Shown here one piece after another: positions 8,624-26,055 of a stretch of 40,586 nucleotides of DNA. Position numbers and translations under genes: made by a program. This DNA is from an uncultured bacterium. GTDB taxonomy: Bacteria > CSSED10-310 > CAZUFC01. The stretch is taken from NCBI GenBank assembly GCA_964619725.1, contig CAZUFC010000078.1, positions 1 through 40,586 of the forward strand, read 5' to 3'. Under the pieces are notes generated by a model. It saw nothing but the letters and a program-made list of their open reading frames with translations. It was not told the origin of the DNA and made no database searches. Numbering within the stretch: position 1 is the stretch's first letter; each line of letters starts with the position of its first letter.

Positions 8624-8947
8624 GTAGTACCCATGTTTGATAAGTCCCAAAATATGCCTATAATGGTTGAAGAGAAAAACATCACCGAACAATTTCATTT
8701 AAGGCCGAACTTCACATATCCTGACATTGATCGATAAAAAATTGCGAAATATTTGACGAAAATCCAGCAATCGATCAAAAAAATCAAGTAAAACAAAGTC
8801 CCCCCGCTTGCGGGTCCGTTAATTTAATCGAAAACGGAATCCGTTCCAATTATTATGTTTTCTTTTATAATCTTTTCTCAGCAAGGTTCGTTTCAAAGTT
8901 CGATTAAATTAACGCTCTCCTGCCGGATATAAGGGGGCTAAAAACTG

Positions 8948-9002
8948 CACAATTTTTATGCCGAGACTCATTGTAAAAAAGTCAATTGATTTCAATATGT
9001 TA
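8948..9002 (-). promoter_or_regulatory. IHF-like site plus sigma54-like -24/-12 element (copy B)
   Basis: Minus strand TCGGCA-TAAAAA-TTGTG at 8964-8948 (GG-N10-GT), with an IHF-like TTTCAATATGTTA at 8990-9002. Points toward the envelope cassette. Confidence 0.55.
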
Positions 9003-9126
9003 GGTTGTCCTTATCAGGAGCGAACTTAAGAGGCTTTTGAAAAAACATGACGTTGATTATGATGAAAAATGCCTCCTGGGTTGAAAAGCTGTTCAACCCT
9101 TTCAGTGTTTTCAAATTCATCCGTCC

Positions 9127-9164
9127 TGCCCAGGGCAGTGCTCGCAAGCTCGCTCAGGCCTGGG
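9127..9164. repeat. REP-like palindrome
   Basis: GCCCAGG-GCAGTGCTCGCAAGCTCGCTCAGG-CCTGGGC inverted repeat in the intergenic region after the activator gene. Confidence 0.55.
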
Positions 9165-9391
9165 CTTTTTGTCAGGACCACTTCGGGGTCAGCATTATTG
9201 TTTCAGGCGTGTGTAATAGTCAGTAATCAAAGAGTCGAATTCTAAGCATTAGAGTATCGGCGGGTTGTTTTTCTTATTAGTCAGAGCCCAGACATCTCTT
9301 TTCTTAGGTCCATTATAAATGATGGGATATTTTGAATAATTGTAACCTCAAAAGACCCATTTTTGATCAATGCCGGGAACCTATACCCGCT

Positions 9392-10828
9392 TCAGCGATA
9401 CAATTCAATATCCTGGGCTTCAATGACATCTCTTCCGTTCATTACGGCATTGTATACGGCTCTCGATGCGAGGTCTTCCAGCTCTCTGAAGTTTCCTCTG
9501 AAGATGTGGGTTTCAATCTTTTCGAGGGCTTCTATTGTGATGCCGCAGATTTCTTTTCCGTTATTACCTTTGGATTTATTTAATTTAGGGTCCTGCAGGA
9601 CATAATCAATAAGGACGCGCAAGTCTGATTTCCTCTGGTGCATAGGCGGCACTTTCAGTTTATACCGGAATCTGTGGTAGAGATCGTCCCTGAAATTTCC
9701 GGCTTTGATTTCTTTTTGAAGGTCCTTGTTGGTGGCGGCTATGATATAGGTAGGAGAATAAATGGGTTCCAGGTAGGGCCATCCGAGAGGTTGGAACGCG
9801 AACCTGTCAAGATATACAAGGAGTTTCGCCTGTAGAGCGGGAGGAGCGTCTCCGATTTCATCCAGGAACACGGTTTGACCCCAGGAAAGGAGGAGGCGCC
9901 CGGGACGCGAAACAGAGCCGGTGAATGCTCCGTGAACAGAACCGAAAAGTTCCGTTTCCAGAAGCTCTTCTGAAACGTTGACCATTGGAATTTGCGTCAA
10001 ATGGCCTTTTCCCGCATCGGAAAGACGCTGATTCAACCATCTGGCGATTAGCGTTTTACCGGTCCCAGTTTCGCCTTCCAGCAGAATGGCAGGCGGCCTG
10101 ACTACAGATTCTGGCTTTATATAGTTTTTGAGGTCGGTTTTTATTTCTTTTAATTTTTTACTTTTTCCGGTCTGCTCGCTTAATGCTTCTCCAATCCTGC
10201 GAAAAATATCCAGTACATCCTGGGCGTCCGTAAAAGGTTTATCGTTTGCCTGCATCCGGTAATTTCTGACCCTGTCGATGGTATAAAGCAGATGATGAAG
10301 AAAATCAATCATCTTACTGTCGAGAAAAAGACTCACAAAGGGACGCTCACGGTAATCAGAATCCTTCGTTTGAATTTTCCATCCCAGACTCTTACAAGGT
10401 AATTTCTCTCCTCTCCTCCTGAGACTCCTTCTGACCTCCTGCTTGATTTTCGCCGCCAGATGTCCGCATTCCTCCGGGTCCTCGAAACTCCTCGCCCTGA
10501 ATATTGAATTAATAAAAAAATACCGGTGGTCCATGACTTCGTTCACCATATCAGCATTGTATTCTTCCGCTATCAGAATGACAGGAATATTCTTCACTTT
10601 CAGCTTATCCATCAGAAGAGATATACCCTTCATCTGCGATATGACCAGCAAAGGATCATTCAGATTCTCCACCGCCAGTCGTTCCGGTTTCATTCCTTTA
10701 ACGGAGATGCCCAGAAACTCCTTCTTCGGCCTGATCTCTGACTCGGCGTATTGCTTGATGAATCCCTCTATGATTTGCCGGTGTCTTTCATTATTGGAAA
10801 TTACTATTATTTCTTTGGCGTTATCCAT
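9392..10828 (-). CDS. Sigma54-dependent AAA+ activator (bEBP) lacking a C-terminal HTH
   Basis: Walker A GETGTGKT, ETELFGSVHGAFTGS, Walker B FLDEIGD, AATNKDL, FRDDLYHRF and GNFRELE. The protein ends just after the AAA lid. The N-terminus looks like a degenerate receiver-like domain. Confidence 0.93.
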   Translation of the reverse strand: MDNAKEIIVISNNERHRQIIEGFIKQYAESEIRPKKEFLGISVKGMKPERLAVENLNDPLLVISQMKGISLLMDKLKVKNIPVILIAEEYNADMVNEVMDHRYFFINSIFRARSFEDPEECGHLAAKIKQEVRRSLRRRGEKLPCKSLGWKIQTKDSDYRERPFVSLFLDSKMIDFLHHLLYTIDRVRNYRMQANDKPFTDAQDVLDIFRRIGEALSEQTGKSKKLKEIKTDLKNYIKPESVVRPPAILLEGETGTGKTLIARWLNQRLSDAGKGHLTQIPMVNVSEELLETELFGSVHGAFTGSVSRPGRLLLSWGQTVFLDEIGDAPPALQAKLLVYLDRFAFQPLGWPYLEPIYSPTYIIAATNKDLQKEIKAGNFRDDLYHRFRYKLKVPPMHQRKSDLRVLIDYVLQDPKLNKSKGNNGKEICGITIEALEKIETHIFRGNFRELEDLASRAVYNAVMNGRDVIEAQDIELYR

Positions 10829-10897
10829 GATCGTTTCCTCCTCTAACGACGCCTTTGACTTCCAGGAAAAGCATATCCGGTCAATCTCTCTTTCGCA

Positions 10898-11896
10898 TCA
10901 ATCGCAGTTACGCTCTTCTATGGATTCCTTCAACTTTTTAAGTCTTTCCCTTTTACCCGGAATGCCGTATTTTTCCCTCAGATGCCTTACCACATTTTCC
11001 GTGAGGGATATCTTGTATTGACTCCCGAATTTTCTGTTTATCTTCCTCGCCAATATCTCATCATTGCATGCCGGATCATATTGAAGGCAATCGCGAATAA
11101 AATCAGTCGCCATGTTTTTTATATACCGGGGGATTTTCTCTTTCCTTCTTGCGTCGAAAGAACAGAACAATTTTAGCGGAAAAACTCCCATATGAGTGAC
11201 CCGGACGAAACAGGAACTGATTAAATTGTAAAGCAGTTCTTTCGACGGCGGTTCCCAGTCTTCATCCCACATCCCGGATATTTCATTGCGCAAGTCGGTC
11301 TGCGAAACTTGATGGCGGTTCATTTCAGCCATGAATTCTTCTCTGGTATTCGTCAGAAGAGCATCCCTGAAAGTCGAAAGAATAAATTGTCCAATATAAT
11401 TGAGGATGCATAACTTTCGATCCATACAGTTCTGAACCTGCAGTCCCGTAAACGTATTTTTTCTGATTAGCGGTTGTTCGGAAGGATAGGCATTCAGCTC
11501 ATTACCGAATCGTGCAACCGTTATTGATGGAACCGAAGCCAGAGTATGCCGAGTATTCAATTGCGCCGAATCGCATAATTGACCTTCAATGTCAATACTT
11601 TCTCCCGAATCAGGCTCGAAAGCTTCATCATCCCATTCCCCGCCCAATATATCATCAACATCCCATTCTTCATCAGGTGATCCATCATCCATATCCCAAT
11701 TTTCATCATCCGGTTCCGATTCCGGTTTTTTAACTTCAACTCCCTTTAAATCATCATAGTAAGTCGCAAGCCAGGCGATATTCTTGTTTTCCGGAATTTG
11801 AGTTATTCGAGATAACAATTTGTTGCTGATTCCAAGGTCTGCATTTTTTCTTTTTTTGCCGGTTATCTCATTTGATTGCCCTAATTTCTTCTTCAA
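10898..11896 (-). CDS. Divergent, shortened sigma54 (RpoN)-like factor
   Basis: C-terminus VRVTHMGVFPLKLFCS...NDEILARKI...ISLTENVVRHLREKYGIPGKRER is colinear with RpoN (TPRGIFELKYFFS...SDxxIA...IARRTVAKYRExLxIP...R). Acidic Trp-containing region II-like tract. TTG start with AAGGAG 9 nt upstream. Confidence 0.8.
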   Translation of the reverse strand: MKKKLGQSNEITGKKRKNADLGISNKLLSRITQIPENKNIAWLATYYDDLKGVEVKKPESEPDDENWDMDDGSPDEEWDVDDILGGEWDDEAFEPDSGESIDIEGQLCDSAQLNTRHTLASVPSITVARFGNELNAYPSEQPLIRKNTFTGLQVQNCMDRKLCILNYIGQFILSTFRDALLTNTREEFMAEMNRHQVSQTDLRNEISGMWDEDWEPPSKELLYNLISSCFVRVTHMGVFPLKLFCSFDARRKEKIPRYIKNMATDFIRDCLQYDPACNDEILARKINRKFGSQYKISLTENVVRHLREKYGIPGKRERLKKLKESIEERNCD

Positions 11897-11997
11897 TATT
11901 TATTTCTCCTTTCTTTTGAGTTCAGCTATTTTTTTATCGCGATTGGACCATGACAAAAGCAGTGATCAAAAAATTTAAATTCCCTGAACAATTAACT

Positions 11998-14900
11998 TCA
12001 CGGCAATCCTAAAATCATTTTGCTTTTATTGCCGGGCGATGTTTTTTCGCCGTCATTCCATGCCGCTTTTGCGATGACTCTGATTGCATCACGGAAGGAA
12101 GCCCGTGCCAGGAAATGCCTGTTTTCATCATTGGCGGCGTCTTTGATGCTCCTGATATAACCGTTCCGGATCATTCTTTTCAGGACTATTTCAAAATGCC
12201 TGTCGTCGACTGAATCCGTGTATATTGAACGCAAATAAGGCATGAAAAAGTCATAGACATTTTGTACGTCAATCTTACCTTCTTTGATTTTCACTGTGAT
12301 TATTCCATCCAGGTTAAGCAGCGACTGGACAAATTCCAGGCTTATGCCTGAACCGGCAAGACCGCCTGTATGAAAAGTTTGCATGCTGAGCTGAGTGCCC
12401 CGTTCTCCGACAGACTGTCCGGCAATGATGCCGACCGGAAGTCCAAGTTCCGGAAACCGTCGCTGACTTATATCCCATCCATAACATCTCGCGCATATCC
12501 CTTCTGTCTCTTTGCAGGTCAGGGGCGATCTAATCCGGATACTTTTTATTTTTTTTATCTCGATCTCCTTCATTGCTTCAGGTGTGATGACGCTCCCTCG
12601 GAACAATCCGCCTTTATTTTCTGCAATAACTCTTCCAATCAGTCTTTTGCGGATATTATCCGAATCGATTTTAACGGTAATTCCCGGAATGGATTTCGTC
12701 CTGCCGGCGCAGCAGTCCTCGACGACGATGGCTACGGGGTAGCAGGCTTCAACTAAAATTCTGGTGAAATTTCCGGCTACTGGCGTTTTAAGTTTTTTAT
12801 CGGCCAGTGTCTTCCGGGAAGCTTTCAGCGACATGAAATATTCCATAGGCGGGATGCCCTCAAGAAAATTGGACAGGAAAACATGCGGTATTTTTCCTTT
12901 AACGCCCTCCAATATGCCCCTGAATCCACCCAACTGGGAAACCTGGTCGGCGTTGCCGCGGGCGCCTGAAGCGAACATCAATGCCAGAGGATTCGGAGGA
13001 GATTGACGGGCCAGATTATATAAAGGCTCAACAATTTTCCTTCTCATTTCTTTAGTCTCTCGCAGCCATTGGCAGTATTTTCTGCGTTCAGCCATGCTCA
13101 AAAAAGGGATATCGAAAAGGGAGAAGGTAATCCCGGCGAGAGTCGCCTCTCTGAATGCCCATTGCATTATTACGTTTGCAAGGCGGGCTGTTTGCCGGGG
13201 CAAGTCTTCCTCCGCCGATTTTAAGGCTTCAGCGAGAATTCGCTTTGTAACTGGACCGGAGAAGCTTTTATCAGATTCTGCGCCGAAAATGTAAAACGGA
13301 TCATTCTTTTCCGAGGCGTAGTAAACGCCGGCAATTATGTCCTGTGCCAGATGCAGATTCAAATCACCGTTTGCTATGGACAGAAGATTACGTTCCGGCA
13401 ACAGGCGTGAAGCCTCATCAATCGACTCGCGTTTCAAAGGCAGATATACCGCCATCGTATCTCCATCAAAGTCTGCGTTGAAACCTGCACATACCAAAGG
13501 CGGCAATCCGATCACGTTGTCCGTCCGTCGTACTGCATGAAAAGCCTGGAGACTCAATCGATGAAGACTGGGCGCTCTGTTCAGAAGCACGGTGAATCCG
13601 GCATTTTTACTTTCCGTCAAAGGCAGAAAAGCATCATATATGCGAGCCGGAAGCGCAGCCTGGTTGATTTCCAATGAAGGGTCGGGGACTATCACGGCCC
13701 TGGCCGAACAGTCTTGTCTTCTCCCCAGCAATCCTTTCCTTAAAAGTCCCTTTTTCCCGGTAAGATGATCGCTTATAGAGCCCCTGCTTTTTCCCGCAGC
13801 TACTCCGGGATATCCCATCAGTCTTTCTACCGCATACTGAACGCCCTTTTCCGCCTTACGAATAGATGCTGGACCGCTTTTTTTTTTGGTCTTCAAGTAT
13901 TTAAGAAACGAGTTCTTTTTTATTAGTTCAGAATATCTCTTATGGAGCGGCGACGGTATCGGGGTTTCAGGAGCATTTATGTAATGACGAAAAGCGGCAG
14001 GGACCACGGGAATCATCGATAGAAAACATCCTTCTGGCGGTTCTTTATTCTTTAACTGCAATAAACGGAAAAGCGCTTCCGGGCCGGTAACCGCTTTACC
14101 GCCATTCCTCAGAATACTTTGCCCCTGAACGTTCGTCAGAATTGAGCCGGCTTCTGATTCATCCTCTTCAGCGCCCTCAAGAAGAACATATTTTTCTCCA
14201 TGGGCAATATCCCTTATTACCGCCGCTTTAACATCATCAAGGTTTTTCATCAGCGGCGACCCTGAAATATAAATCTGCCAGGGGTGTATGACGCAGCAGT
14301 CCAATTTGACGTAAGCGAATCTGGTTCTGTATTCTCTCGTCCCTGCGTCTCCGATGATGGACGTATCCATCAATCCGCCCGGCCTGGGTACGTATATAGG
14401 TTCTTTCACTCTCCTTCGGATGATGCCTTTGCATTTTAATTTTTTACACCGTCTTTTATTTTCATCGCTGCGGACTCTCTTCCAATGTTTACTTGAAAAA
14501 TCGTAGATTTCGCCGCATTTGTCACACTGAAAGAAAACAGGTCGATATATTTCAAAGGGATGGAAATCACCCACAGTTATTTCTCGCAAACCGGCAGTGA
14601 ATTTTTCCATATCAGAAGGAGTGATAGCGAAATCGACAAGTTCATCGGGCGTGATATCTTCCGGTTTACTGACGATAACGGGTTTTTCTCTGGTTTTATA
14701 GAACAATTGAAGGTCCAGCCCCAATCCTTTCAGGTAAACCGCTAGCGCCCATAGCGTCCAGTTTAATTGTTTTTCCCCGCCGGCATCGCCTTTGTCATCA
14801 GAATGTGAGACTACTCTTCCGGCGCCGTCAATGAGCGATTCTTTTACGATCGCTTTTGCATTATAAGCCTGAAGCGCCCAGAATTCCATTTCACCCATTT

Positions 14901-17673
14901 TTTGGCCGCCGTTATGCTTCTTGCCTTTTAAAGCCTGACGGGTAACCAGATCGTATCCGGTTCCGCCCTGACGAACCGTGAGTTTGTCGGCCGCCAGGTG
15001 ATGGAGCTTCATAATATACTGGTATCCGACTGTTACCGGTGCATCGAACCCTCTTCCCGTTTTCGCATCAATCAATACCGATTTTCCTTCCGGATACCCG
15101 ATTCGTTTCAAGCGGTCACGAAGCCGGTTTGCTTCTGTCGTATGAAACGGCGGTATGATAAAATGAGTGTTCTCCTTATATGCGATCATGCCCAGGTGCG
15201 TTTCAAATATCTGGCCCAGGTTCATTCTTGAAATGACGCCGTGAGGATTAAGAATGACATCAACCGGCGTACCGTCGGGCATATGCGGCATCTCATGCTC
15301 CGGGAGCATGAGTCCTATAACCCCTTTATTGCCGTGACGCCCCATCAGCTTATCGCCTACTGCTATTTTTCTTTCTGTTAAAATCCTTATAGAGATGATT
15401 TTTTCGGGATAATGAGCAAAAAGGTCTGCGCCGGTATATTGCGTCTGCACATCATAAACTTCACCCTCAAGTCCCGGCCAGGCAGTTACTTCACCCTTTT
15501 CCGTATGCATCAGAACAGTCCCGGGAACGACTTCGGCGCCTTTTCTGATTATTCCGTTAATGTTCAACATGCGACGATCTCTTCCGCGTGGGCCCTGATG
15601 TTTAATAATATTGCCCGGCCATACAGGAATTCGAATTTCCTTCTCATGAAAAGACGTCAACAGATTATCCCTGACCAGCCTTTCGCTGATTACAACGGCA
15701 TCCTCGAAATTGTAACCTTTCCAGGGCATATAAGCAGTCAGAAGATTTCTGCCGAGAGACAGAATGCCGTTTTTAACCGACGGACCTTCGGCCAATATCT
15801 CTCCCGCTTCAACCTTCTGTCCCGGCGAGACTGAAGGACGCCTGTAAACCGGAATTTTCGTGTTGCCGCAACGGACCCGGCCTATATCGACTTTTATCGT
15901 TTTCCCTTCTGAATTCTCCAGAACTATTAATCCTTTATCTCGCTGAATTCTTCGGATTCTTCCCGTCTGCTTCGCTCGCACGATCATCCCGGCTGCCTCC
16001 GCTGCAAGCGCTTCAAATCCTGTTCTTATTAATGGAGGTTCAGGATTAACAAGCGGCAATGCCTGTTTCATGTTTTTTGCAGCCATGATCGCCCTGGCGC
16101 CGTCGTTATTTCCTATGAAAGGTATAAGCGATGCCGCATAACCTAGGAATTGACCGGGAAAATTTTCAGCCATTACGGCTTCTTCCTGACGATCATCATA
16201 AATTAATGTGCGCTCCCGACCGCCGATCCTGGACCTCCTCATGCATTCAACATATCCGTCTGCTGGTCCGGAAGACAATGATCTCAATCCGTATCCGGGG
16301 TCAGCGAATCCAGGACTGCTCCCGAAAAATGGACGCCTTTCATTTGCCGGCGGCATCATTGTGATTCCCGAAACGCTTCTTGAAGGACTCGCTATTCTGC
16401 CTTCCTCATCAATCGATGCATACGCCGCCAGAAACAAGTCCAGTCCTATCCCTTCCGACTCAGGCGTCTCGACAGCACATAAACGTCCGTAATGACTTGT
16501 ATCCAGGTCACGCCTGGCAAGCGGCGTCACTTTTCGGTCCAGTCCGGACGGACCGCCGAAACTGATTTTCCGCTGCGAACTCAAAATTGATACAGGATTC
16601 CTGTCTTCAAACAACTCGCAGCTCTCTTTAAAAAAATTGCCTAATGATCCCTCCAATGCATACGGCATGCAGAACCAGACAGGGCTGTTCTTGTTAATTT
16701 TCTCTCTATTCCCGGCTAATTTGCGCATAAGTATAAACAACGACCATCTCACCGCCTGTTCCAATCGGTCACCAGCCAGTCTCACCCGATAGCTCTCCAG
16801 ATCATTCAGGTCCTCAGCGCCCGGCCAGTCAGCGCCGAGAAACTCAGAAGCAACCCGCACATCACCGGCTGTTACATACTTCTCTTCATTGACCGCCAGA
16901 CATGTCCGGTTTATCGCCTTCCTCCCGTCTCTGCCCAATGCGAAATAAATATTGTCGTAAAATGGCGTTTTGAAGTACGCATTGACCGGACCTCGACCAC
17001 GGAAGAAGCGCTCGCTCTCAAGCAGCTCCAGAAATTCCTCCAGGTCGATCTTCACCGATCCCATCCGGATACGCTTCCGAACTCCCTTTTTAGTTACAGA
17101 GCCTACAAGGTTAAAATGAGGCCCGAAACGGGGCTGAAACCTTATTATTCGCTTCCTGCCGCCTTCAGCCGATAGGAAATGCATGCCCGGAGAAAAATAA
17201 AAATAACCCGTCGGCGACCATTCCACAGCATGGCCTGTCCTGTTTTTCCTGATAAATGTCCCCCAGCCCGTCATACAGGGAAAAGGGCCTAATCTGAGTT
17301 CAGAATCCCATTTATGTTCATTATCGAATAAAACTTCTGTCTCTAATACAACTTCTCGATTGTAATCCGTTATGCCTTGCCTGGCAAGCTCTTCATCAGG
17401 ACCGGGCGTCTCAATTTTATAACCCGTAAAATTCAAACGAATATTACGGTCTTGCGATTTTATCGTCAGCCCGGAAGCCTCCTTTAATACCTTTTTCAAT
17501 CCCCTTTCATGCAGACTTTCATAAGCAGCTCCTGAATCAAGAGCCTTAGTCTGCAAAAAACGGTCATAAGATTGAATATGAGGCGGTTCTGCGGAAGCGC
17601 CGTATTTTTTTAAGCCTTCCAACCACTTATCCATGACGGTTTTTCCAGCTATTTCTGAATTAAATACTTCCAT
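11998..17673 (-). CDS. Fused, streamlined DNA-directed RNA polymerase beta-beta' subunit (RpoB-RpoC-like)
   Basis: Beta motifs: HYGRLCAVETPE, GYNFEDA, GDKLMGRHGNKG, NPHGVISRMNLGQ, GGQKMGEME. Beta' motifs: LLNRAPSLH, NADFDGD (13459-13479), SGARG, CARCYG, GTQLSMQTFHTGG. One continuous ORF of 1891 aa; alternative start at 17634. Confidence 0.96.
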   Translation of the reverse strand: MEVFNSEIAGKTVMDKWLEGLKKYGASAEPPHIQSYDRFLQTKALDSGAAYESLHERGLKKVLKEASGLTIKSQDRNIRLNFTGYKIETPGPDEELARQGITDYNREVVLETEVLFDNEHKWDSELRLGPFPCMTGWGTFIRKNRTGHAVEWSPTGYFYFSPGMHFLSAEGGRKRIIRFQPRFGPHFNLVGSVTKKGVRKRIRMGSVKIDLEEFLELLESERFFRGRGPVNAYFKTPFYDNIYFALGRDGRKAINRTCLAVNEEKYVTAGDVRVASEFLGADWPGAEDLNDLESYRVRLAGDRLEQAVRWSLFILMRKLAGNREKINKNSPVWFCMPYALEGSLGNFFKESCELFEDRNPVSILSSQRKISFGGPSGLDRKVTPLARRDLDTSHYGRLCAVETPESEGIGLDLFLAAYASIDEEGRIASPSRSVSGITMMPPANERRPFFGSSPGFADPGYGLRSLSSGPADGYVECMRRSRIGGRERTLIYDDRQEEAVMAENFPGQFLGYAASLIPFIGNNDGARAIMAAKNMKQALPLVNPEPPLIRTGFEALAAEAAGMIVRAKQTGRIRRIQRDKGLIVLENSEGKTIKVDIGRVRCGNTKIPVYRRPSVSPGQKVEAGEILAEGPSVKNGILSLGRNLLTAYMPWKGYNFEDAVVISERLVRDNLLTSFHEKEIRIPVWPGNIIKHQGPRGRDRRMLNINGIIRKGAEVVPGTVLMHTEKGEVTAWPGLEGEVYDVQTQYTGADLFAHYPEKIISIRILTERKIAVGDKLMGRHGNKGVIGLMLPEHEMPHMPDGTPVDVILNPHGVISRMNLGQIFETHLGMIAYKENTHFIIPPFHTTEANRLRDRLKRIGYPEGKSVLIDAKTGRGFDAPVTVGYQYIMKLHHLAADKLTVRQGGTGYDLVTRQALKGKKHNGGQKMGEMEFWALQAYNAKAIVKESLIDGAGRVVSHSDDKGDAGGEKQLNWTLWALAVYLKGLGLDLQLFYKTREKPVIVSKPEDITPDELVDFAITPSDMEKFTAGLREITVGDFHPFEIYRPVFFQCDKCGEIYDFSSKHWKRVRSDENKRRCKKLKCKGIIRRRVKEPIYVPRPGGLMDTSIIGDAGTREYRTRFAYVKLDCCVIHPWQIYISGSPLMKNLDDVKAAVIRDIAHGEKYVLLEGAEEDESEAGSILTNVQGQSILRNGGKAVTGPEALFRLLQLKNKEPPEGCFLSMIPVVPAAFRHYINAPETPIPSPLHKRYSELIKKNSFLKYLKTKKKSGPASIRKAEKGVQYAVERLMGYPGVAAGKSRGSISDHLTGKKGLLRKGLLGRRQDCSARAVIVPDPSLEINQAALPARIYDAFLPLTESKNAGFTVLLNRAPSLHRLSLQAFHAVRRTDNVIGLPPLVCAGFNADFDGDTMAVYLPLKRESIDEASRLLPERNLLSIANGDLNLHLAQDIIAGVYYASEKNDPFYIFGAESDKSFSGPVTKRILAEALKSAEEDLPRQTARLANVIMQWAFREATLAGITFSLFDIPFLSMAERRKYCQWLRETKEMRRKIVEPLYNLARQSPPNPLALMFASGARGNADQVSQLGGFRGILEGVKGKIPHVFLSNFLEGIPPMEYFMSLKASRKTLADKKLKTPVAGNFTRILVEACYPVAIVVEDCCAGRTKSIPGITVKIDSDNIRKRLIGRVIAENKGGLFRGSVITPEAMKEIEIKKIKSIRIRSPLTCKETEGICARCYGWDISQRRFPELGLPVGIIAGQSVGERGTQLSMQTFHTGGLAGSGISLEFVQSLLNLDGIITVKIKEGKIDVQNVYDFFMPYLRSIYTDSVDDRHFEIVLKRMIRNGYIRSIKDAANDENRHFLARASFRDAIRVIAKAAWNDGEKTSPGNKSKMILGLP

Positions 17674-18968
17674 GCTTCCTCCGGCGTCATCGCGCCGTTC
17701 GTTGAAATTTTAAATTTTAAATATTCGCCTTCATTAACCCAGGAAACCCGGTCAACAGCGACAGGAGATTCCGCCGCAGGCATAACCAAAACATTACCCT
17801 TGTCGACACGTTTACTCTCCCCGACGGCTCTTCCGCAACGCCTCTCAATGAACAACTCAATATCAAACTCGGCAGACTCATCCATCGTCGCAACATGCCG
17901 CCCTGGATCATTCACATCGCTGAACATGATTCGTCCACCCTCCAGAATGACTTTCCCAGCTTCCGCGAATTTCCTGCCCATTTCGCTCTGAACGGTAAAA
18001 AGGTCGCCGGCAGTCAGTTCCCCAGGTCCCTTGTGCTTCGTCAAGACCCTCCATCGACTTTCCTTCCGGTGATTCCTGATCGCTATACGGCCCATATTCT
18101 GCATTATTTCATACACGGTCTCAGAGACACCGCATACCGCATCAAAGATATGCTGAATGGTCCGTTCGCCGCTTATATCATTGATCCTTATTCCCGTAAT
18201 CGACGGCCTGGGGATGGAACCCATCAGAAATCGCCGAACAGATGCTGCCGTGAATCGAACGAAATCCTCTTCCAATCCGACCGTCGGCAACCTTACGACG
18301 GCAATATTCTCCGCTTTTTCCAGGAATTCATATCCCGCAAAAGCATTTCGCAACCGCCGACCACGCTCATGCTTGGACAGCGCAGAAGGCTGAAGACGAA
18401 AAGCTCCCCTAAGTCCATGACTGATCCTTTTCAACTCCTCTTCATTCCCCGATTTCAACTCAACTTCCAACTCGAAAAATTCAATCCCAAGCAGGAAATC
18501 AGGATAACGAAACCTGTCCAGAGCAACCTCCATGCACACACGCTCATCCCGAACCAGCTCCAGAACAATACGGCGATTTTCCACAGCTATGTCCGACTTC
18601 AGCTTATATCCCTCAGCTTCCAGCTTTTCCTTTAAATCCACGCCGGCGTGTTCCGATAAAAATCGTCGCATAATTTCACCCTCATCATCCCCATTTTCGT
18701 CCATCACCAGCTCATGCTCCTCTCGCATATGCACCGCATCATCAAGTTTCACATCTCGCTTCAATGTCAACTTCCTCTCGTTCGCCCGCTCCCGGACCCG
18801 AAAATTCAAACCATGTTCCCGCAACAATTCGCCTTCCATATCAAAATATTCATCACGCTGAAATACAGGCCCACCCGTCAGCTTAACCCCATATTCACCC
18901 ATCCTCCTCATGCATGACAGTTCAGTAAAAACTTCGTCGTTTCCGATATACTTCGATTCCGTTTCCAT
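17649..18968 (-). CDS. CYTH (triphosphate tunnel) domain fused to RNA polymerase alpha N-terminal domain
   Basis: Residues ~1-205: ETESK (ExExK), QRDEYFD, FRVRE, LTLK, VALD, ELEVELK, SKHERG = CYTH. Residues ~210-439: VRRFLMGSIP, GVSETVYEIMQN, GPGELTAGD, ISTNGAMTPEEA = RpoA NTD. No alpha-CTD. Confidence 0.9.
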   Translation of the reverse strand: METESKYIGNDEVFTELSCMRRMGEYGVKLTGGPVFQRDEYFDMEGELLREHGLNFRVRERANERKLTLKRDVKLDDAVHMREEHELVMDENGDDEGEIMRRFLSEHAGVDLKEKLEAEGYKLKSDIAVENRRIVLELVRDERVCMEVALDRFRYPDFLLGIEFFELEVELKSGNEEELKRISHGLRGAFRLQPSALSKHERGRRLRNAFAGYEFLEKAENIAVVRLPTVGLEEDFVRFTAASVRRFLMGSIPRPSITGIRINDISGERTIQHIFDAVCGVSETVYEIMQNMGRIAIRNHRKESRWRVLTKHKGPGELTAGDLFTVQSEMGRKFAEAGKVILEGGRIMFSDVNDPGRHVATMDESAEFDIELFIERRCGRAVGESKRVDKGNVLVMPAAESPVAVDRVSWVNEGEYLKFKISTNGAMTPEEAWKYLIQK

Positions 18969-21334
18969 TAATTATCCTCCAGGGAGGAATAGAAAGGGAA
19001 AGAGGGTTTATTTTGCTTCCTTAACTCCCACTGATCTTTCCACCAGTAATTAGCAGCCAGGTTCATTTTATCTGCGGCATATCCGGAAACCTGTTTGAAT
19101 TCGCTGCTGACCTCTTTTTCGATTGTCTTCTTCAGCGGTTCATCATTAAACACAGTTTTATCCAACAATTTTTTCCTGACAGCTTCTTCATCGGGATGCA
19201 GAATAATATGGAATTCAAAAGCGTTATCTGAAAAGTCGTTATCAGGCATTACGTCAATTTGACTCACTGCGCTGTGTTTTATGTAATGCCGCGCCTGTCC
19301 ATCCAATAGACGCCAACGATCTATCGCTTCTGCTGCAGCTAACCATAATCTGGCACACTGCTTCTTAGGGGAAGGAGCCATTGGATCATGCAGTACCTTA
19401 AGACATTCTATTCTTGTTTTGCGATTTTCATCATCCAGTTCTAATGTTTCTTTTTTCTTTTTAAAGCGATTAAACCACTCTGTTTTTTCAGAACAATCAG
19501 GAGAAGCCTTAAAAGCATCAATAGCCATATCCATTTTACTTAAAGCCGCAATACAGTCCTTCTCAAGCATCAATTCGGATAAACCCTTTCTGAATTTTGA
19601 ACCCGCTCGTCTAGCCTGGCTGTCGCAACCGTCTATCAGACGTATAAGGGCTACAACCTTCATCAAATCCACATTGCATTCGTTCATATAATATTCAGCT
19701 TTCTTCTTTAACGAGCCGGGCCATTGTCCTGTAAGATGAAGCATCCCCTTCTTTTTTCCGCTCTCATTATCATGGTCCATCCTTCGACGATGATATAGAC
19801 AAGCAAGGATAACTGCCTCATGAATGCGCTCATCAAATCCTTTATCCCTAAATCCATCTTTGCCGGGCCATTCAATGTAGTTCGCCGTTTTTACATCATT
19901 CAAACGTATTCCCGCGAGGAACTGATGATAATCCCTTACGTCATCGGTGAATAGCGGAATTATATCGGGTAATCCGTGTACGGTAATTTCACCGAAAAGA
20001 TTAGAAAGTTCGCGGGATTCTTCCAGGGACAAACTGTTTACCGAATGACCGCAATCATGCAGTAGTACAGTCGCAATTAAAATGAAACGTTCACTTTCGT
20101 TGAAAAATCTCGGAGCATGATGAAGAATGGGCGTTAAAAATAACTCGGTGAATTCCAACAAATCATGATGATGCATCCTGGCGTGATCAACCATTTCAGG
20201 AATCTTATCGCCTAACCAGATTATGTCGCCGACTTTGTCGATTATTTTGTGCAGTATGTTCTTTAATTCGAAAATATCGGTTTTTTTTGCAGACCACCAT
20301 TCGATATCCTGATTAGTCAGATTTTTAATTCTACGACCGCCTACAAGCGGACTGTCAACATTCAGAATCCTGTCAACAATACTCTTTGAATAGACTTTTA
20401 ATGGGTCTACAGAAATTTGATCATCGTATCTCAATTTCAATTCATTACCGAATACCGAAAGCGTTTTTCTTCTGTCCGCTTTTTTCTCGCTACCCTTTTT
20501 TTCCTCTTTGCTGTCATGAAGTAAAAGTTTTACCGGATTCTCCGGCATAAAATATTTCGTACTCCCCAACTCCAGGACCATTTTCAGTCTCAATGCATTT
20601 TCGTGCCATTCCCTAAAATCCAATCCGATCGGATAAGTGGGAATAAAGATCAAATCGCGGGAGTCCTCAAACAGATAAGCGATTTCAACTTTTTCCCTGT
20701 GAAGTGTCGCCATGAGTGTCGAATAAGGAACCGTTCCTTTATAACCACCTGTTGCATTTAATAGAATTCGTTCACACCCTCTGTTTTCAACCAGATCATT
20801 GATCATTTCTTTTATCTTCGCCATCCAGTTGTGGAAGCCTGACCTCTCGAATTCGCTACCCTTTTCTGCATTCACATCTTTTGCATAATCTGAATCAAGA
20901 TTGAATTCAGCAGAATACCAATCTCGCCACGGTTCATTTTTCAGCACATCAGCAATTATAACCGCACAGTTTCTGGATTCATATGTGTCTGAAGGAAGAA
21001 ATTTGACTATATCTCCTTCCTCATTACTGTTTTTATTCGTTTGAGCGTATGCCCAAAGGTAACTCAACTCTTGCGGCATCCGATCAGTCGGATGATATTT
21101 AGTCTTGTTTCGGTAATCGAATTGTCTTTTCGGGTCTAATTTAAGTATGTTAGTCACGATTCTATCTCGAGGCGTTTTTGCATTTCGAGAGTTCAGATTA
21201 TATGCAAGGCATTCGGTTCGCCTGTTGATTTCGTCGATAACATGATTTTCATTTTTTTTGCGATCATTTCGGTATTCCTCACCTCTATTGGTGATTAAGG
21301 AAGTCCCTACTGTAAGAATATGCCCAGTTTTCAT
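18968..21334 (-). CDS. CRISPR-associated CARF (APE2256/Crn1-like) plus HD-domain protein
   Basis: N-terminal ILTVGTSL, PQELSYL, LPSDT, LNATGGYKG and YLFED match the APE2256-type CARF. C-terminal MVDHARMH, LLHDCGH, RDYH, CLYH and LIRLIDGCD give the HD phosphohydrolase metal ligands. Confidence 0.87.
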   Translation of the reverse strand: MKTGHILTVGTSLITNRGEEYRNDRKKNENHVIDEINRRTECLAYNLNSRNAKTPRDRIVTNILKLDPKRQFDYRNKTKYHPTDRMPQELSYLWAYAQTNKNSNEEGDIVKFLPSDTYESRNCAVIIADVLKNEPWRDWYSAEFNLDSDYAKDVNAEKGSEFERSGFHNWMAKIKEMINDLVENRGCERILLNATGGYKGTVPYSTLMATLHREKVEIAYLFEDSRDLIFIPTYPIGLDFREWHENALRLKMVLELGSTKYFMPENPVKLLLHDSKEEKKGSEKKADRRKTLSVFGNELKLRYDDQISVDPLKVYSKSIVDRILNVDSPLVGGRRIKNLTNQDIEWWSAKKTDIFELKNILHKIIDKVGDIIWLGDKIPEMVDHARMHHHDLLEFTELFLTPILHHAPRFFNESERFILIATVLLHDCGHSVNSLSLEESRELSNLFGEITVHGLPDIIPLFTDDVRDYHQFLAGIRLNDVKTANYIEWPGKDGFRDKGFDERIHEAVILACLYHRRRMDHDNESGKKKGMLHLTGQWPGSLKKKAEYYMNECNVDLMKVVALIRLIDGCDSQARRAGSKFRKGLSELMLEKDCIAALSKMDMAIDAFKASPDCSEKTEWFNRFKKKKETLELDDENRKTRIECLKVLHDPMAPSPKKQCARLWLAAAEAIDRWRLLDGQARHYIKHSAVSQIDVMPDNDFSDNAFEFHIILHPDEEAVRKKLLDKTVFNDEPLKKTIEKEVSSEFKQVSGYAADKMNLAANYWWKDQWELRKQNKPSFPFYSSLEDN

Positions 21335-21348: not shown

Positions 21349-23652
21349 TCATCCACCTTGGCGTTTACCCCCTCTTATTTCAGACGGAGGCAGTAAAGTT
21401 TCCTCTTTTCCTCTGTTATGCGGCCTTTGATTCCGCTGCTCCATAAAATAGCTGAATCCTTCATAGGCTTTTTTTCCCGGCGGATAATACTGAACAGGAC
21501 TTTTTCCTGCCAGATTCAGGTGATGTATATTACAAAGTTCCTTGTAAAATTCTTCTGAATCGAATGCCGATACAGCAGATTCATCAATAATTTCTTCGTC
21601 ACCGGTAATCATCCATGATTTGAAAGTTTTGACTAAATTTTCTGCCGCAGCATGGTCGATTACCTCGATATTGCTCTCATCTGCTGTACGCCATCCGCCG
21701 ACGGGATTTGTTTTAATTATTTTTTCGATTTTGATTTTTATGGATCCCATGCCTAAAGGACGACCCATACCTAATTTATGAGCGAGCTTTTCATTTTCGT
21801 TCAAGGGAGAATCCGAGAGTGAAATCGACCAGAGCAGCAGCCCGAGTTCATAATTCGATAAAGAATCAAACTCGATGTAGCCTTTGAAAACTTTACCGGG
21901 CGGCAATACTGCAGCAGTCAAGTTCTGATTCGTACGTAAATCTTTTTCTTTGATTTCATGGGGAGGTTTTTGGGCGAGGTCTTTATTGATCATCTCCGGT
22001 TTTATTTTAACGTAATCGCATGCCTTTTCCTTATCGTTGCTTATTGCCGTGGGATGATGAACGTAGAACTTTCTTCCCCTAAGCAATCCTGCATTATGCC
22101 ACCACCCACCTGAATCCATTGAATAATAACCAGCTTCCTCGCCCATGTTCTTGTTTTTATCCTCAGGTTTGAGATAAAAGGGATAATACTTTGGTTTTGG
22201 CGAACCCAGTATTTTCAAAGGCAAGAGCACTGTTTCATTTAAACGGCTATCAGACCAGGCCGTTCCGACACGAACGCGCCCCGCCACTGGGGAGGTTTCC
22301 TTTTTCTTTCCTTTCTTTTTTTCTTCTGGACTCCAGCCGAATAAGCGGCTTGCCGGACAAAGGTTCGTGTTCTTTTCAGGGGGCAGCGCCCACGGCGTTT
22401 TGCCGGCCAGTTCACCGGGATTAGACAATTCAGGCGACTTATACATTCCTACGGGACCCATTTCAACAACCATATTGTTTCTGGAGAGAAAACAGACTAT
22501 GTCGCCCGGTTTCGGCTTACGATAATCTTCATTATCACAGTTCGCTTTTTTGAAGAAATCGAACGCTGCGTCATCAACTCGTATCGGCTTTCCTTTTCTA
22601 TAAAGCGCTTTTATATAATGAACTCTTTTACGTTGAGAAGAGTCCATTTCATCCCATCCTTTATGCGGCCACAAGATTATATTAACGTTTCTTTCTATGG
22701 CTTGCCAATTTATCCCATTACCGCTTAACATGCATACTCGATCTTCTTTAAATGTCTTTTTTAATTTGGTGTTTACGTGCGGTATTTTTGGAACAACCCT
22801 GAAGCTCATATCTTGAATTCCATGATGAGGTATTTTTTCTTTCGTTATATCCTTCATCATCGGTCCTTTCCATCGTTGTTTTGAATCAATTATTACTTCA
22901 CTTTTAAAGCCGCTTCGCTTTATTAATTTTCCTTTTTTCACATTAGACATTTTTTTGCTGAAATGTTCGAAATAAGGCAAACCTGCCCCGGAGAAACTAC
23001 GAACAAGTGGAGCTCCTGTGTGTAATTGCCAGAGTTCAGCACTAACAGTCGTCTGATTTCTTCTGAATTCCTCGTATTTTTTAGCCCTGGACTTATCATC
23101 TTTTAAACCTAACGCATTATCAAAGGCTTCTCGCCATATTTTCGCAGTCGCAAAGGGTTCAACGTAATATCCGTTATCATCCTTACATAAACGTCCCCAT
23201 TTTCTGTTGAAAAGATCTTTATCTGCCCTTGAAATATTATCCGCTTTACGGAACCTGTAAACATCATCTTTAACGGAAAATATCCCGAATGAACTGTTGG
23301 AAACGGCCTCAACAATATTCCTGAGCATACCTTTGATGGATGTACCGGGGATTGCCAATCGGCTGTCTATGTTAAAAAAATCTTTTACTGGATGTTCATT
23401 TTTTTCTTTATCCGAATCGCCGTTTTTTGAACTTACTTTGTAATAAGTCGTATGCTCCGAGTCGGGCACAAAGAACGGACTTACATTCATTAAACTGAAC
23501 TCTATTCGACCGGAATGCCCTTTGTATGAGTCAAGAGATTGAAATTTCCTTATTTCACCTATTGGACTTTTCGTATTATCTGAATCGTATCCCCTAGGCG
23601 GTTTTTCTGAAATGGGTGCAAAATTGAATGGGTAAACAAAATGGTTATTCAC
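21349..23652 (-). CDS. cas7: Type III-D Cas7 with large insertion (TIGR03986-like RAMP)
   Basis: YPFNFAPI, IPGTSIKGMLR, CPASRLFG, LGSPKP, LRGRKFYVH and LGMGRPLGMGSI (Gly-rich loop); 767 aa. Confidence 0.92.
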   Translation of the reverse strand: MNNHFVYPFNFAPISEKPPRGYDSDNTKSPIGEIRKFQSLDSYKGHSGRIEFSLMNVSPFFVPDSEHTTYYKVSSKNGDSDKEKNEHPVKDFFNIDSRLAIPGTSIKGMLRNIVEAVSNSSFGIFSVKDDVYRFRKADNISRADKDLFNRKWGRLCKDDNGYYVEPFATAKIWREAFDNALGLKDDKSRAKKYEEFRRNQTTVSAELWQLHTGAPLVRSFSGAGLPYFEHFSKKMSNVKKGKLIKRSGFKSEVIIDSKQRWKGPMMKDITKEKIPHHGIQDMSFRVVPKIPHVNTKLKKTFKEDRVCMLSGNGINWQAIERNVNIILWPHKGWDEMDSSQRKRVHYIKALYRKGKPIRVDDAAFDFFKKANCDNEDYRKPKPGDIVCFLSRNNMVVEMGPVGMYKSPELSNPGELAGKTPWALPPEKNTNLCPASRLFGWSPEEKKKGKKKETSPVAGRVRVGTAWSDSRLNETVLLPLKILGSPKPKYYPFYLKPEDKNKNMGEEAGYYSMDSGGWWHNAGLLRGRKFYVHHPTAISNDKEKACDYVKIKPEMINKDLAQKPPHEIKEKDLRTNQNLTAAVLPPGKVFKGYIEFDSLSNYELGLLLWSISLSDSPLNENEKLAHKLGMGRPLGMGSIKIKIEKIIKTNPVGGWRTADESNIEVIDHAAAENLVKTFKSWMITGDEEIIDESAVSAFDSEEFYKELCNIHHLNLAGKSPVQYYPPGKKAYEGFSYFMEQRNQRPHNRGKEETLLPPSEIRGGKRQGG

Positions 23653-24310
23653 TTTTTTCCTCCATTGATGTCTGTTTGCTTGATTTATTTAGACTGAACA
23701 GAAAATCCTGATCGGCTACCCCCGGTTTAAGCATCCTCATGAAACTTTCACCGCTCGATTCATCCTGATATGTCCTGATTTTCAGAATCGGATAAAAGGG
23801 CAATTTACCATTGGAATTGAATTTCATGTATACATCCGGATACTTAATTTCAGCGCTTCCTTTGATTCTCTGTTCCTTATACCCGGCTTCATCAATCGCT
23901 TTTCCCCATAATATGAGAAAATCGTCCTCTATTGTAACTTCGACGGTTTTTTCAGCGCATTCAATTATTTCGGGACGCATCATTTCTTCAGCAGCTTCAA
24001 TCATGCATACGCATCGAAAAATTTCATTATTAAACCTTCGCCACTCAATTTGACCATCGCTCCAGAAAATACGGCCGCGCAAACAGAAATCTATAAATTC
24101 ATTACCCTTAATTTTTTCCAGAACATCTGTCGGCTGGGGACCCATAAAAAAGAATTTATGCATTTGCTCAATCAACGCCCAGCATTCATCCTGATTCTTT
24201 TTTCTGTTGATCCAATCAGTTATGTAATCTGCGATGTCTTGACCGTCTCCTTCAAATGATAATAATCTTAGATTCATGAAATTATTTTCACTTCTGATTT
24301 GATTTGTCAT
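23645..24310 (-). CDS. csx19: Type III-D Csx19-like subunit
   Basis: Sits between the two cas7 genes, as in III-D operons; motifs GRIFWSDGQIEWRR and LILWG. Confidence 0.7.
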   Translation of the reverse strand: MTNQIRSENNFMNLRLLSFEGDGQDIADYITDWINRKKNQDECWALIEQMHKFFFMGPQPTDVLEKIKGNEFIDFCLRGRIFWSDGQIEWRRFNNEIFRCVCMIEAAEEMMRPEIIECAEKTVEVTIEDDFLILWGKAIDEAGYKEQRIKGSAEIKYPDVYMKFNSNGKLPFYPILKIRTYQDESSGESFMRMLKPGVADQDFLFSLNKSSKQTSMEEKSE

Positions 24311-26055
24311 CTGGCGTCTCCATTCTGTAACTCAAAATTTCTCATTATACTACGGAAGCACTCTTCAGCTTTACGGAATTTTATATTCAACGGATTATCC
24401 TCTAAGGAAGAAATATAGTCATGCTCATTAAAGCTCAATTCGGTTTGATAGGTTTTGAAAGGACCAAGTTTCCGGGCTTTTTCGAATGCTTCGCCTTCCA
24501 GAAGGCCTCCCCTGAAGGTTAGCGCTTCCATCGCAATCTTCTGAAGTTTAACTCGGCCGAATCCTCTATTTTTGCCGTAACCCAACAGAATACGTCCCAT
24601 GCGTAAATCGCGAAGAAGCAGCAGCAGCATACCCAAATGATCCTCACTGAAATCGAACATTTCAATTTCAAATTCAAGATCGCCTTCATCACTTGCTGTT
24701 TCTGGGGGACCTGATGGAAAGAAAGGTCGGCTGTTGAACTTGTGCTGGTCAGCCGCCCCTCCTGAGAATCTATCAAGCGCCACATGGTCAAGCATCTTGA
24801 GACGTGAGTTGAATTTTTTCGAATCGAGCGGCACGGCGTCAGAAAAAATTATACGTCCTCCCATGGCTGGAAATCCGAATAAATGACTAACCAGGCATGA
24901 AACATCACTCTCTTTAAATTTTTCCATATTACTGAAAAGTTTTCCTTCTTCCTCTGCACGTCCTACATCCCAAGCCGCCTCCTTCGCTTTATCACCGCCG
25001 ACAACCGTTCTTACAGCCCTTTCGGCATGCGACCGTAATGTACCTCTTATTGATGAGCCCGGAATATAAGGCTTTTCATTGGTATCCCGGCAAAATGATG
25101 CGTCTACGGAAAATTCTTTCTGGAGCGGGATTAAACCGAAATCGTTATTCGAGCGAATAGCGCCTTTGTTCTTAACCACTTCAGTCGAATAGCCGGTTTT
25201 TACCAATAAAGGTTCCATCGGACGAATTATGCAACTAAAACGAACTTTTTCCGAGGCGATATTATCATTTAATTCAACAACTGCAGTTTTGTCTTCATTC
25301 CGTATTTCTGCAAAAGGTTTTTCCTCAAAGTATTCTTTTCCATCTTTATCCTTTGCATTCCAGCCATTTAAAGCATAAGCAAGGACATCATCGGGTGATG
25401 ATCGGTCGCACTCTCTTATCGTACAATTACATAACTTGAACCGACCGTAACCGGTCCCGATGCTGCCTCCAAAATGAGCCCATCCGTTTTCCATCAATTT
25501 CAATATGTTATGCAAAAGGCTGACAGCCATTTGATCGGGGGAAAGTCCGGAATCCTGTAATCGTAATTCCTGAGTCGTCATTGGTCCTGTTTCTCTAAAT
25601 TCCAACTTTATATCAAAACAAATATCTCCATCCACAACTTCTTCCCGAAATAAACGTTTATCATCCGCACTTCCCAATTCCCTGTTTATCGCATTACGGT
25701 CTCTAACCATTGCACTATAAGATTCACTTTTTACATGTGAATCAAACACCTTTAAGCGGGAAGACTGCCCCTGTTCGCCTTCCGTATCTCCCCGGGCGCT
25801 GCCGAACAGCGCAGCGAAAGCCTTGTCTCTTTCAGAAATATTATAACCGCCATTGACGATCAATTTTCTGGCCAAGGAAGCCATTACGCCGCATAGTGAT
25901 GTTCCCGGCAGAATGGGACGATCGAATGAATCGAGCATAACTCTTCTGTCGATGAACTCTGAATGATCGTCTGGAGAACCCACATGAAAGGGCCCCCCTT
26001 GTCGGTCGCCCATTCCTCGTATCTTTAAATCACCCCGTATTAAATAATCTTTCAT
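24307..26055 (-). CDS. cas7: Type III-D double-RAMP Cas7 (Csm3-like x2)
   Basis: Two RAMP units (LPGTSLCG...GGSIGTGYG and IPGSSIRG...LGYGKNRGFG). The ATG at 26055 forms an ATGA overlap with the upstream stop. Confidence 0.92.
   Translation of the reverse strand: MKDYLIRGDLKIRGMGDRQGGPFHVGSPDDHSEFIDRRVMLDSFDRPILPGTSLCGVMASLARKLIVNGGYNISERDKAFAALFGSARGDTEGEQGQSSRLKVFDSHVKSESYSAMVRDRNAINRELGSADDKRLFREEVVDGDICFDIKLEFRETGPMTTQELRLQDSGLSPDQMAVSLLHNILKLMENGWAHFGGSIGTGYGRFKLCNCTIRECDRSSPDDVLAYALNGWNAKDKDGKEYFEEKPFAEIRNEDKTAVVELNDNIASEKVRFSCIIRPMEPLLVKTGYSTEVVKNKGAIRSNNDFGLIPLQKEFSVDASFCRDTNEKPYIPGSSIRGTLRSHAERAVRTVVGGDKAKEAAWDVGRAEEEGKLFSNMEKFKESDVSCLVSHLFGFPAMGGRIIFSDAVPLDSKKFNSRLKMLDHVALDRFSGGAADQHKFNSRPFFPSGPPETASDEGDLEFEIEMFDFSEDHLGMLLLLLRDLRMGRILLGYGKNRGFGRVKLQKIAMEALTFRGGLLEGEAFEKARKLGPFKTYQTELSFNEHDYISSLEDNPLNIKFRKAEECFRSIMRNFELQNGDAR

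Follow-up and report, generated by a model that had tools for sequence, protein, structure and literature searches.

Type III CRISPR-Cas systems need transcription to see their targets and, where Cas1 is linked to a reverse transcriptase (RT), also to gain spacers. Their known outputs include nucleases, proteases and released sigma factors, which act through the host RNA polymerase (RNAP). For instance, the CalpL-CalpT-CalpS system and the type III-E Csx30/Csx31-RpoE system pass the immune signal on to transcription by way of a factor for the host polymerase. In these systems, as with the sigma54 activator RtcR, a factor is released or activated for the host enzyme, whereas the locus described here encodes a polymerase core and a probable sigma54-like factor of its own. 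It lies on contig CAZUFC010000078.1 of an uncultured bacterium (assembly GCA_964619725.1), the entire 40,586 nucleotides (nt) of which are referred to as the window in the following. At its center is P0001, a protein in which a CYTH domain, as found in the triphosphate tunnel metalloenzymes, is fused to the N-terminal domain (NTD) of an RNAP alpha subunit.

Both halves of P0001 have known relatives. With the NTD of RpoA, it shares the two-domain fold, as predicted by a model, an arginine (RR) pair and other core residues, and the position of its gene next to that of a large subunit; unlike RpoA, it has no C-terminal domain (CTD), carries an insert and a short last helix, bears a CYTH domain at its N-terminus and belongs to an extra polymerase. 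With the CYTH enzymes, it shares the N-terminal ExExK motif and the invariant charged residues of the tunnel, but these enzymes occur alone or in front of a CHAD domain (as in the database proteins P0003 and P0012) rather than as part of a polymerase subunit. The closest functional precedent for the reading that we prefer comes from baculovirus LEF-4 and yeast Cet1, tunnel-family triphosphatases that reside in or on the transcription machine and act on the 5' ends of nascent RNA. These proteins are not alpha homologs, and they work together with a guanylyltransferase, which is absent from the window.

The open reading frame (ORF) of P0001 encodes 439 residues, from METESK at its start to TPEEAWKYLIQK at its end. 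The Pfam CYTH profile matches residues 31-182 (E 2.7e-9, 37.5 bits against a cut-off of 23.2), and the ExExK motif begins at residue 2. In a comparison with 48 stand-alone CYTH proteins, P0001 keeps all 14 invariant columns (E2, E4, K6, D43, R57, R59, K70, R82, E84, R133, D151, E168, E170 and K199) and 36 of the 38 columns that are conserved in at least 60% of these proteins. The complete CYTH motif set that had been described in an earlier note on this DNA is thereby borne out, and the CYTH half, judged by its residues, is apparently catalytically complete.

The second half, residues 216-439, is matched by the Pfam profile RNA_pol_A_bac, the Rpb3/RpoA insert domain, at residues 261-387 (35.0 bits, cut-off 33.9), and by the NCBIfam rpoA model TIGR02027 at residues 232-434 (E 3.1e-18), in the latter case with 66 bits, which is far below the equivalog cut-off of 227.8. 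It carries the conserved RR pair and the other invariant columns of the alpha-NTD, as well as an insert of 20 residues. Pfam RNA_pol_A_CTD has no match in P0001, and since the protein stops eight residues after the PEEA of the conserved TNG..PEEA stretch, with a short last helix, both the alpha linker and the CTD are absent; here, too, the earlier note had read the protein correctly. By these matches, P0001 is a paralog of the alpha-NTD and not the housekeeping RpoA. A structural model of this half, which was built on an alignment of 33 RpoA sequences and therefore leans on RpoA, has a predicted local distance difference test score (pLDDT) of 82.4 and a predicted template modelling score of 0.78, and shows both flanking helices of the dimerization domain. 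In Foldseek, it retrieves the alpha-NTD chains of Thermus and E. coli (E 2.5e-15, TM-score about 0.70-0.72). Likewise, 54 of the 55 PDB sequences that match P0001 at E <= 0.01 are RNAP alpha chains; the sole other match, to residues 34-209, is the inorganic triphosphatase 5a60_A (E 3.3e-4), which we take to be E. coli YgiF. P0001 is thus a real fusion of two domains, a CYTH/triphosphate tunnel domain and an alpha-NTD without a CTD.

Although this fusion is known from one database record on one contig, we find it hardly credible that it represents an artefact of assembly or gene calling, or a decaying pseudogene. Its frame is open over 439 codons and retains the 14 invariant CYTH residues together with the invariant alpha residues. 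Its ATG overlaps the TAA of the upstream gene and is preceded by the Shine-Dalgarno word GGAGGA, which is also found before the start of the downstream gene. Furthermore, the stretch is present in four sequencing runs of one microbial-mat study, no RNA run being listed among them; the first is not counted as independent, since the window may derive from it. Logan contigs from the second and third sample (X2, covering 18029-18645, and X3, covering 18187-18358) cross the junction between the CYTH and alpha halves with 0 differences, and separately built X2 and X3 contigs also cross both gene borders of P0001, again with 0 differences. No long read that breaks between nt 18272 and 18338 was seen. 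Since contigs assembled run by run bridge the junction in three samples, an assembly chimera is ruled out.

Outside this organism, the CYTH-alpha fusion was found nowhere else in the databases searched. A phmmer search against 1.84 billion representative proteins returned 274 matches at E <= 0.001. Those alpha-type matches that are long enough to hold both domains (P0016, P0070, P0130 and P0132) are tandem or extended RpoA proteins, and the best database matches are stand-alone CYTH and CYTH-CHAD proteins. A search of the Atlas with P0001 gave no usable match, and PADLOC has no model for P0001 or for its two downstream neighbours, P0151 and P0271. Our literature searches on CRISPR-linked RNA polymerases, CYTH, sigma54/CARF and rpoBC fusions found no description of such a module, and the main text of a survey of type III accessory genes (PMC6546367) does not contain the term 'RNA polymerase'. 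Both the protein and the literature searches agree with the earlier note, to which this fusion was not known from any described RNAP. Judged by the refuting condition of that note, uniqueness to this assembly, the fusion is unique to one organism; it is present in the per-run contigs of three samples, all of the same study.

The last codons of the P0001 gene overlap, by 25 nt, the start of the gene for P0151, a compact fused beta-beta' subunit with the motif GRHGNKG at residue 778, an intact NADFDGD at residue 1399, and a CxxC motif at the joint between beta and beta'. It is a member of a family of such compact fusions, ~1470-2300 residues long, which are devoid of the Pfam domains Rpb2_1, Rpb2_2 and Rpb2_45 and carry the signature MGAKN[LM]KQA where ordinary beta subunits have MGSNMQRQA. 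In the genome (9.17 Mb, 90.9% complete), housekeeping subunits are encoded elsewhere: rpoA on contig C63 (128 bits, 348 residues, NTD, linker and CTD), rpoB and rpoC as separate genes on contig C180, and rpoN on contig C28. The polymerase of the window is therefore an extra one. With an identity of 26% to the host RpoA, the alpha half of P0001 is no recent copy of that protein. A tblastn search of plasmids with P0151 hit 74 records, whose listed features are ordinary rpoB/rpoC genes, with no single place covering at least 80% of the query. When genome contigs were scanned by way of the universal motifs of the whole beta-beta' alignment, all 80 loci that were kept looked like ordinary rpoB-rpoC regions.

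The polymerase genes continue a type III CRISPR-Cas operon (Table 1). All genes from 30033 down to 9392 are encoded on the minus strand, in the order cas genes, CARF+HD-CE gene, CYTH-alpha gene, beta-beta' gene, orf332 and AAA+ gene. From cas10 to beta-beta', neighbouring genes are spaced by -34 to +14 nt and, by this packing, form one operon, whereas beta-beta' is separated from orf332 by 101 nt and orf332 from the AAA+ gene by 69 nt. The features by which type III-D systems are recognized, namely a Cas10 with GGDD, RAMPs of the Cas7 and Cas5 type, Csx10, Csx19 and an array, are present, with the scores for Csx10 and Csx19 below their cut-offs. The CARF+HD-CE protein is, by its domains, a probable sensor of cyclic oligoadenylate (cOA). 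It also matches the PADLOC model CARF7--CARF_CYTH_HD (E 7.7e-16).

Table 1. Features of the window discussed in the text, with the basis of each assignment.
Feature	Position	Strand	Length	Basis
Cas1, adaptation gene	609-1631	-		Pfam
Reverse transcriptase, adaptation gene	1537-2553	-		Pfam
Sigma54-interaction AAA+ ATPase	9392-10828	-	478 aa	Sigma54_activat, 125.5 bits
orf332 (P0271), probable divergent sigma54-like factor	10898-11896	-	332 aa	Position; weak fold and profile similarity
P0151, compact fused beta-beta' RNA polymerase subunit	11998-17673	-	1891 aa	Pfam, NCBIfam, motifs
P0001, CYTH-alphaNTD fusion gene	17649-18968	-	439 aa	ORF, Pfam, NCBIfam
P0001, alpha N-terminal-domain half (residues 216-439)	17649-18323	-		Pfam, NCBIfam, predicted fold, PDB sequences
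P0001, CYTH/triphosphate tunnel half (residues 1-215)	18324-18968	-		Pfam, 14/14 invariant columns, 5a60_A match
CARF (Cas_APE2256) + HD-CE protein	18968-21334	-	788 aa	Pfam; PADLOC CARF7 models
Type III-D-like effector genes (the following seven)	21349-30033	-		Pfam, NCBIfam, PADLOC
TIGR03986 RAMP	21349-23652	-		259.5 bits
Csx19-like	23645-24310	-		17 bits, below cut-off
Double Csx7 RAMP	24307-26082	-		117.6 bits
Small-subunit-sized ORF, possibly the small subunit	26052-26507	-		
Csx10-like RAMP	26500-27672	-		77 bits, below cut-off
RAMP	27639-28403	-		
Cas10 with GGDD	28387-30033	-		Cas10 palm2, PADLOC Cas10/Cas10d; GGDD at 293, no HD
CRISPR array, 78 repeats of 37 nt, 77 spacers	31290-36940			

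Related polymerase modules occur in metagenome contigs. Scanning metagenome contigs with the signature region (MGAKN[LM]KQA) yielded 60 loci: 21 with a fused gene, 17 with separate beta-sized and beta'-sized ORFs, and 22 fragments at contig ends. The fused loci comprise 20 with an ORF of at least 1400 residues and one, L181, in which the 5' end of the gene is cut; genes of the module were counted in flanks of up to 10 kb with mechanically called ORFs. A sigma54-type AAA+ protein is encoded within three genes of the polymerase in 16 of the 21 fused loci, and L204 has a MoxR-type AAA protein instead; of the remaining ones, two are cut off by the contig end and two show no AAA+ gene. As L214, L215 and L217 are identical and L219-L221 nearly so, the number of independent loci is smaller than these counts. 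A CARF+HD-CE protein is encoded beside the polymerase in seven loci and a REC+HD-CE protein in one (L179). The closest relative of the CARF+HD-CE protein of the window (E 2e-126) is found in L174. Both L174 and L182 also harbor genes for Cas6, RT-Cas1 and SAVED proteins, and L174 has a homolog of the last RAMP of the window in addition. A rough tree shows these loci scattered across the compact beta-beta' family. The module without the CYTH-alpha gene thus recurs elsewhere, partly beside type III CRISPR genes. One further CYTH domain was found in such a module: L204 (positions 202-12100) encodes a fused beta-beta' protein, a 309-residue ORF related to the sigma54-like set described below, the MoxR-type AAA protein, a VWA protein, and a free-standing CYTH protein of 478 residues with the CYTH domain at 274-454.

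Compact beta-beta' proteins are also frequent in viral contigs. Of the 269 stretches in IMG/VR that matched the pattern, 264 were confirmed to be related to P0151, and 80 loci were kept. Among L095-L171, which are contigs of up to about 200 kb, it is common for a single match of ~4.5 kb to comprise both halves of P0151. Another of these loci, L093 (positions 9137-16467), encodes a fused beta-beta' protein of 2196 residues directly followed by a 245-residue protein that consists of an alpha-NTD only; it represents a different accessory polymerase, near which a sigma70 region 2 protein, an RNB RNase and an NYN RNase are encoded. In three unrelated loci (L179, L187 and L093), the polymerase module is closely followed by a gene for an NYN-domain RNase, and the module of L173 is followed by genes for a STAND-like NTPase and a RelA/SpoT-domain protein. 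The non-canonical RNAPs of phages and mobile elements, as represented by the IMG/VR loci and by the portion of a jumbo-phage review considered here (PMC7824862), likewise have reduced beta/beta' cores without an alpha gene, apart from the alpha-NTD-only protein of L093. The jumbo-phage enzymes covered in that portion are split into several proteins, unlike the fused P0151; none of them is described there with sigma54-type partners, a CARF sensor or a CYTH-alpha subunit, and CYTH is mentioned only for free triphosphatases.

The two genes downstream of beta-beta' may point to a sigma54-type mode of regulation. The AAA+ protein has a Walker A motif at residue 252, the GAFTGS motif at 300 and a Walker B motif at 320. 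It has no C-terminal helix-turn-helix (HTH) domain, as its AAA lid ends at residue 475 of 478, and the same is true for the eight relatives scanned. By eye, its N-terminal 220 residues have the look of a receiver domain without the phospho-acceptor aspartates; no profile matches them. The best names that PADLOC and NCBIfam offer for this protein are RtcR-type models, RtcR being a sigma54 activator with CARF and AAA+ domains. In contrast to RtcR, however, the protein matches these models in its ATPase part (residues 247-475) only, and shows no match to a CARF or HTH domain.

The preceding gene, orf332, would then encode the corresponding sigma factor. In the related loci, the gene next after beta-beta' is always an ORF of 282-436 residues, and in three of the 12 such ORFs that were scanned, Pfam Sigma54_DBD is found with 36.3 (L179), 22.9 (L176) and 22.7 bits (L181), against a cut-off of 22.8. 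Seven of them are linked to each other by phmmer and profile iterations. To this set, orf332 shows similarity that is not significant in hmmsearch (E 0.02-0.26), while hhalign aligns its residues 148-252 to the profile of the sigma54-like ORFs with an E-value of 0.005 but a probability of 7%. The same region is the only confident part of its predicted structure (pLDDT 76-89 over residues 148-250, against 58 overall). Compared with 48,161 PDB representatives, this model retrieves sigma54 chains at ranks 1 and 2 (Z 8.0 and 6.6), at a root-mean-square deviation of 8-9 Å, and the top row in Foldseek is sigma-N with a weak E-value of 0.14. A word-based search found no relatives of orf332, a sequence search of the PDB returned nothing, and neither did the Atlas; in a scan of the genome with TIGR02395, the host rpoN alone was found.

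Some further observations concern the surroundings of the module. The spacers of the CRISPR array are 34-38 nt long, and two of them are present twice. In eight spacers, a Shine-Dalgarno-like word stands before an ATG or GTG on the plus strand, and in none on the minus strand; with RT and Cas1 encoded in the window, this looks like uptake from the 5' regions of mRNAs. The array opens with a degenerate repeat and is followed, behind its last repeat, by an AT-rich stretch; its leader therefore probably lies on the right, at 36941-37844, and the array would be read, as the cas genes are, from the minus strand. Facing this leader, a 736-residue protein with a C-terminal WYL domain, possibly a regulator of the locus, is encoded at 37845-40055 on the plus strand. 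The interval between the polymerase module and RT-Cas1 harbors an ExbB/ExbD-like pair (6370-7218 and 6138-6572) and three ORFs without a family (7451-8212, 5258-6145 and 3122-3850, the last being acidic with a signal-like start). Rfam has no match in the window at gathering scores. A loose scan of the intergenic stretches for GG-N10-GC gave nothing usable, and scans for sigma70 promoters and terminators stayed at chance level.

How might these components act together? The earlier note had proposed an enzyme tethered to a polymerase. This proposal is reasonable and is strengthened by the overlapping gene for a compact beta-beta' subunit, yet it missed that this subunit belongs to a second polymerase within a type III CRISPR-Cas operon; since this operon appears to have its own sigma54-like factor and AAA+ activator, the likely purpose of the enzyme changes. 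We see even chances that P0001 is the alpha-like subunit of such an accessory multisubunit RNAP, operated in the following way. Its alpha-NTD would dimerize and dock on the compact beta-beta' subunit as alpha does in an ordinary RNAP, which would place two triphosphatase domains where the alpha-CTDs would otherwise bind DNA and activators. The polymerase would be held closed by the sigma54-like factor and opened by the AAA+ ATPase, and its use would be coupled, via the CARF+HD-CE protein, to the cOA produced by Cas10. By analogy to LEF-4 and Cet1, the CYTH domains may remove the 5' gamma-phosphate, or more, from the polymerase's own RNAs during transcription. We prefer this role because a tether would be most useful if the substrate comes out of the polymerase itself.

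Several findings weigh against this picture. A word-based search of 5.8 billion proteins with P0001 returned the query alone, each of the 149 other phmmer matches listed covers one half only, and 60 other genomes yielded ordinary rpoA or free CYTH genes but no fusion. The assignment of orf332 as a probable sigma54-like factor rests on weak sequence and model scores and on the position of its gene: there is no Pfam or NCBIfam match even at E 10, phmmer was negative, and so was a BLASTP comparison with the host sigma54. Moreover, the sigma54 consensus TGGCAC-N5-TTGC, with up to two mismatches, occurs nine times in the window, where 28.5 matches are expected. With respect to alpha, the RpoA-NTD profile finds, within the flanks covered, an alpha-like ORF in none of the 60 metagenome loci and in one of the 80 viral loci, namely L093, which is itself included in the profile; in L211 and L219-L221, the CARF-HD gene directly abuts that of beta-beta'. 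An alpha gene next door thus seems dispensable for the function of the compact polymerase, and the module of the window is one gene longer than its relatives, exactly between sensor and polymerase. A role in assembly is thus not required, and the nucleation of assembly, which the earlier note cited for alpha-NTD dimers in general, would here be a candidate role only. Together with the shortened last helix, the end of the protein soon after PEEA, and the match to the dimerization-domain profile RNA_pol_L (residues 242-434), which at 20.5 bits falls below its cut-off of 24, this absence would fit an alpha half that has become a mere scaffold on which the CYTH enzyme dimerizes, without binding to beta-beta', the adjacency of the genes reflecting their common descent. 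We consider this improbable, given that the RR pair and other invariant alpha-NTD columns are kept, that the gene overlaps the start of beta-beta', and that a fused beta-beta' subunit goes together with an alpha-NTD-only protein in L093 as well, which is an independent accessory polymerase.

The substrate of the CYTH domain is a separate matter. It may act on a small signalling molecule, such as tripolyphosphate, ATP, linear 5'-triphosphorylated oligoadenylates made by Cas10 or an analogue of a nucleoside triphosphate, either as a hydrolase or as a cyclase, with the alpha-NTD merely placing it at the polymerase, or it may be a sensor domain for such a ligand. This is a possibility to be taken seriously, if a lesser one. 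As the nearest solved CYTH relative is an inorganic and not an RNA triphosphatase, with stand-alone CYTH and CYTH-CHAD proteins as best matches, a small-molecule substrate would be nearly as likely as an RNA 5' end. The P0001 gene directly follows that of the CARF+HD-CE protein in an operon whose Cas10 has GGDD, and the related module L204 has its free-standing CYTH protein; judging from the name of the PADLOC model that the CARF+HD-CE protein matches, a link between CYTH and this CARF family may even exist independently of polymerases. On the other hand, P0001, the CYTH protein of L204 and the ordinary CYTH protein P0002 match no PADLOC model even at E 10, the CYTH profile reveals no hidden CYTH part in the CARF-HD proteins, and an enzyme for a soluble metabolite needs no fusion to a polymerase subunit. 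A different question is whether the polymerase has anything to do with immunity. The G+C content at third codon positions is higher in the CYTH-alpha gene (0.52) and in that of beta-beta' (0.48) than in the cas and CARF-HD genes (0.36-0.42), with a step at the border between CARF-HD and CYTH-alpha, so the two parts may have separate origins. This would suit a transcription cassette of mobile or phage origin whose insertion into the CRISPR locus was accidental, as would the frequency of compact fused beta-beta' proteins in viral contigs and the presence of NYN, RNB, transposase and replication-initiator genes near some relatives. Even so, a chance insertion appears quite improbable: the CARF+HD-CE gene is linked to polymerase genes in seven other loci, RAMP, Cas6, RT-Cas1 and SAVED genes are found again in L174 and L182, and in the window, the cas genes run into the polymerase genes without a gap, promoter-sized spacer or strand switch.

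If P0001 is indeed an alpha-like subunit with a role at RNA 5' ends, this system would be the bacterial equivalent of 5'-end processing coupled to a polymerase, and CYTH-alpha would be, within the searches made, the first bacterial polymerase subunit with a built-in triphosphatase. A broader proposal, which we think rather doubtful as a whole, is that some type III CRISPR-Cas systems own a private sigma54-type RNAP, shut by a mini-sigma54 and opened by an AAA+ protein under the control of cOA via the CARF+HD-CE protein. It would transcribe when a phage takes over or silences the host polymerase, either to express CRISPR RNAs and cas genes or to turn invader DNA into targets and RT-Cas1 substrates; in the present case, an alpha-like adaptor with two RNA 5'-triphosphatases would be added, yielding processed 5' ends. 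As a matter of conjecture, the reason for a CRISPR-owned polymerase might thus be independence from a host enzyme disabled by phages, or the transcription of invader DNA to supply targets and RT-Cas1 substrates. With its own core, sigma54-like factor and ATP-driven activator, the locus would represent a new class of CRISPR ancillary module, and a compact, self-contained and tightly gated transcription system.

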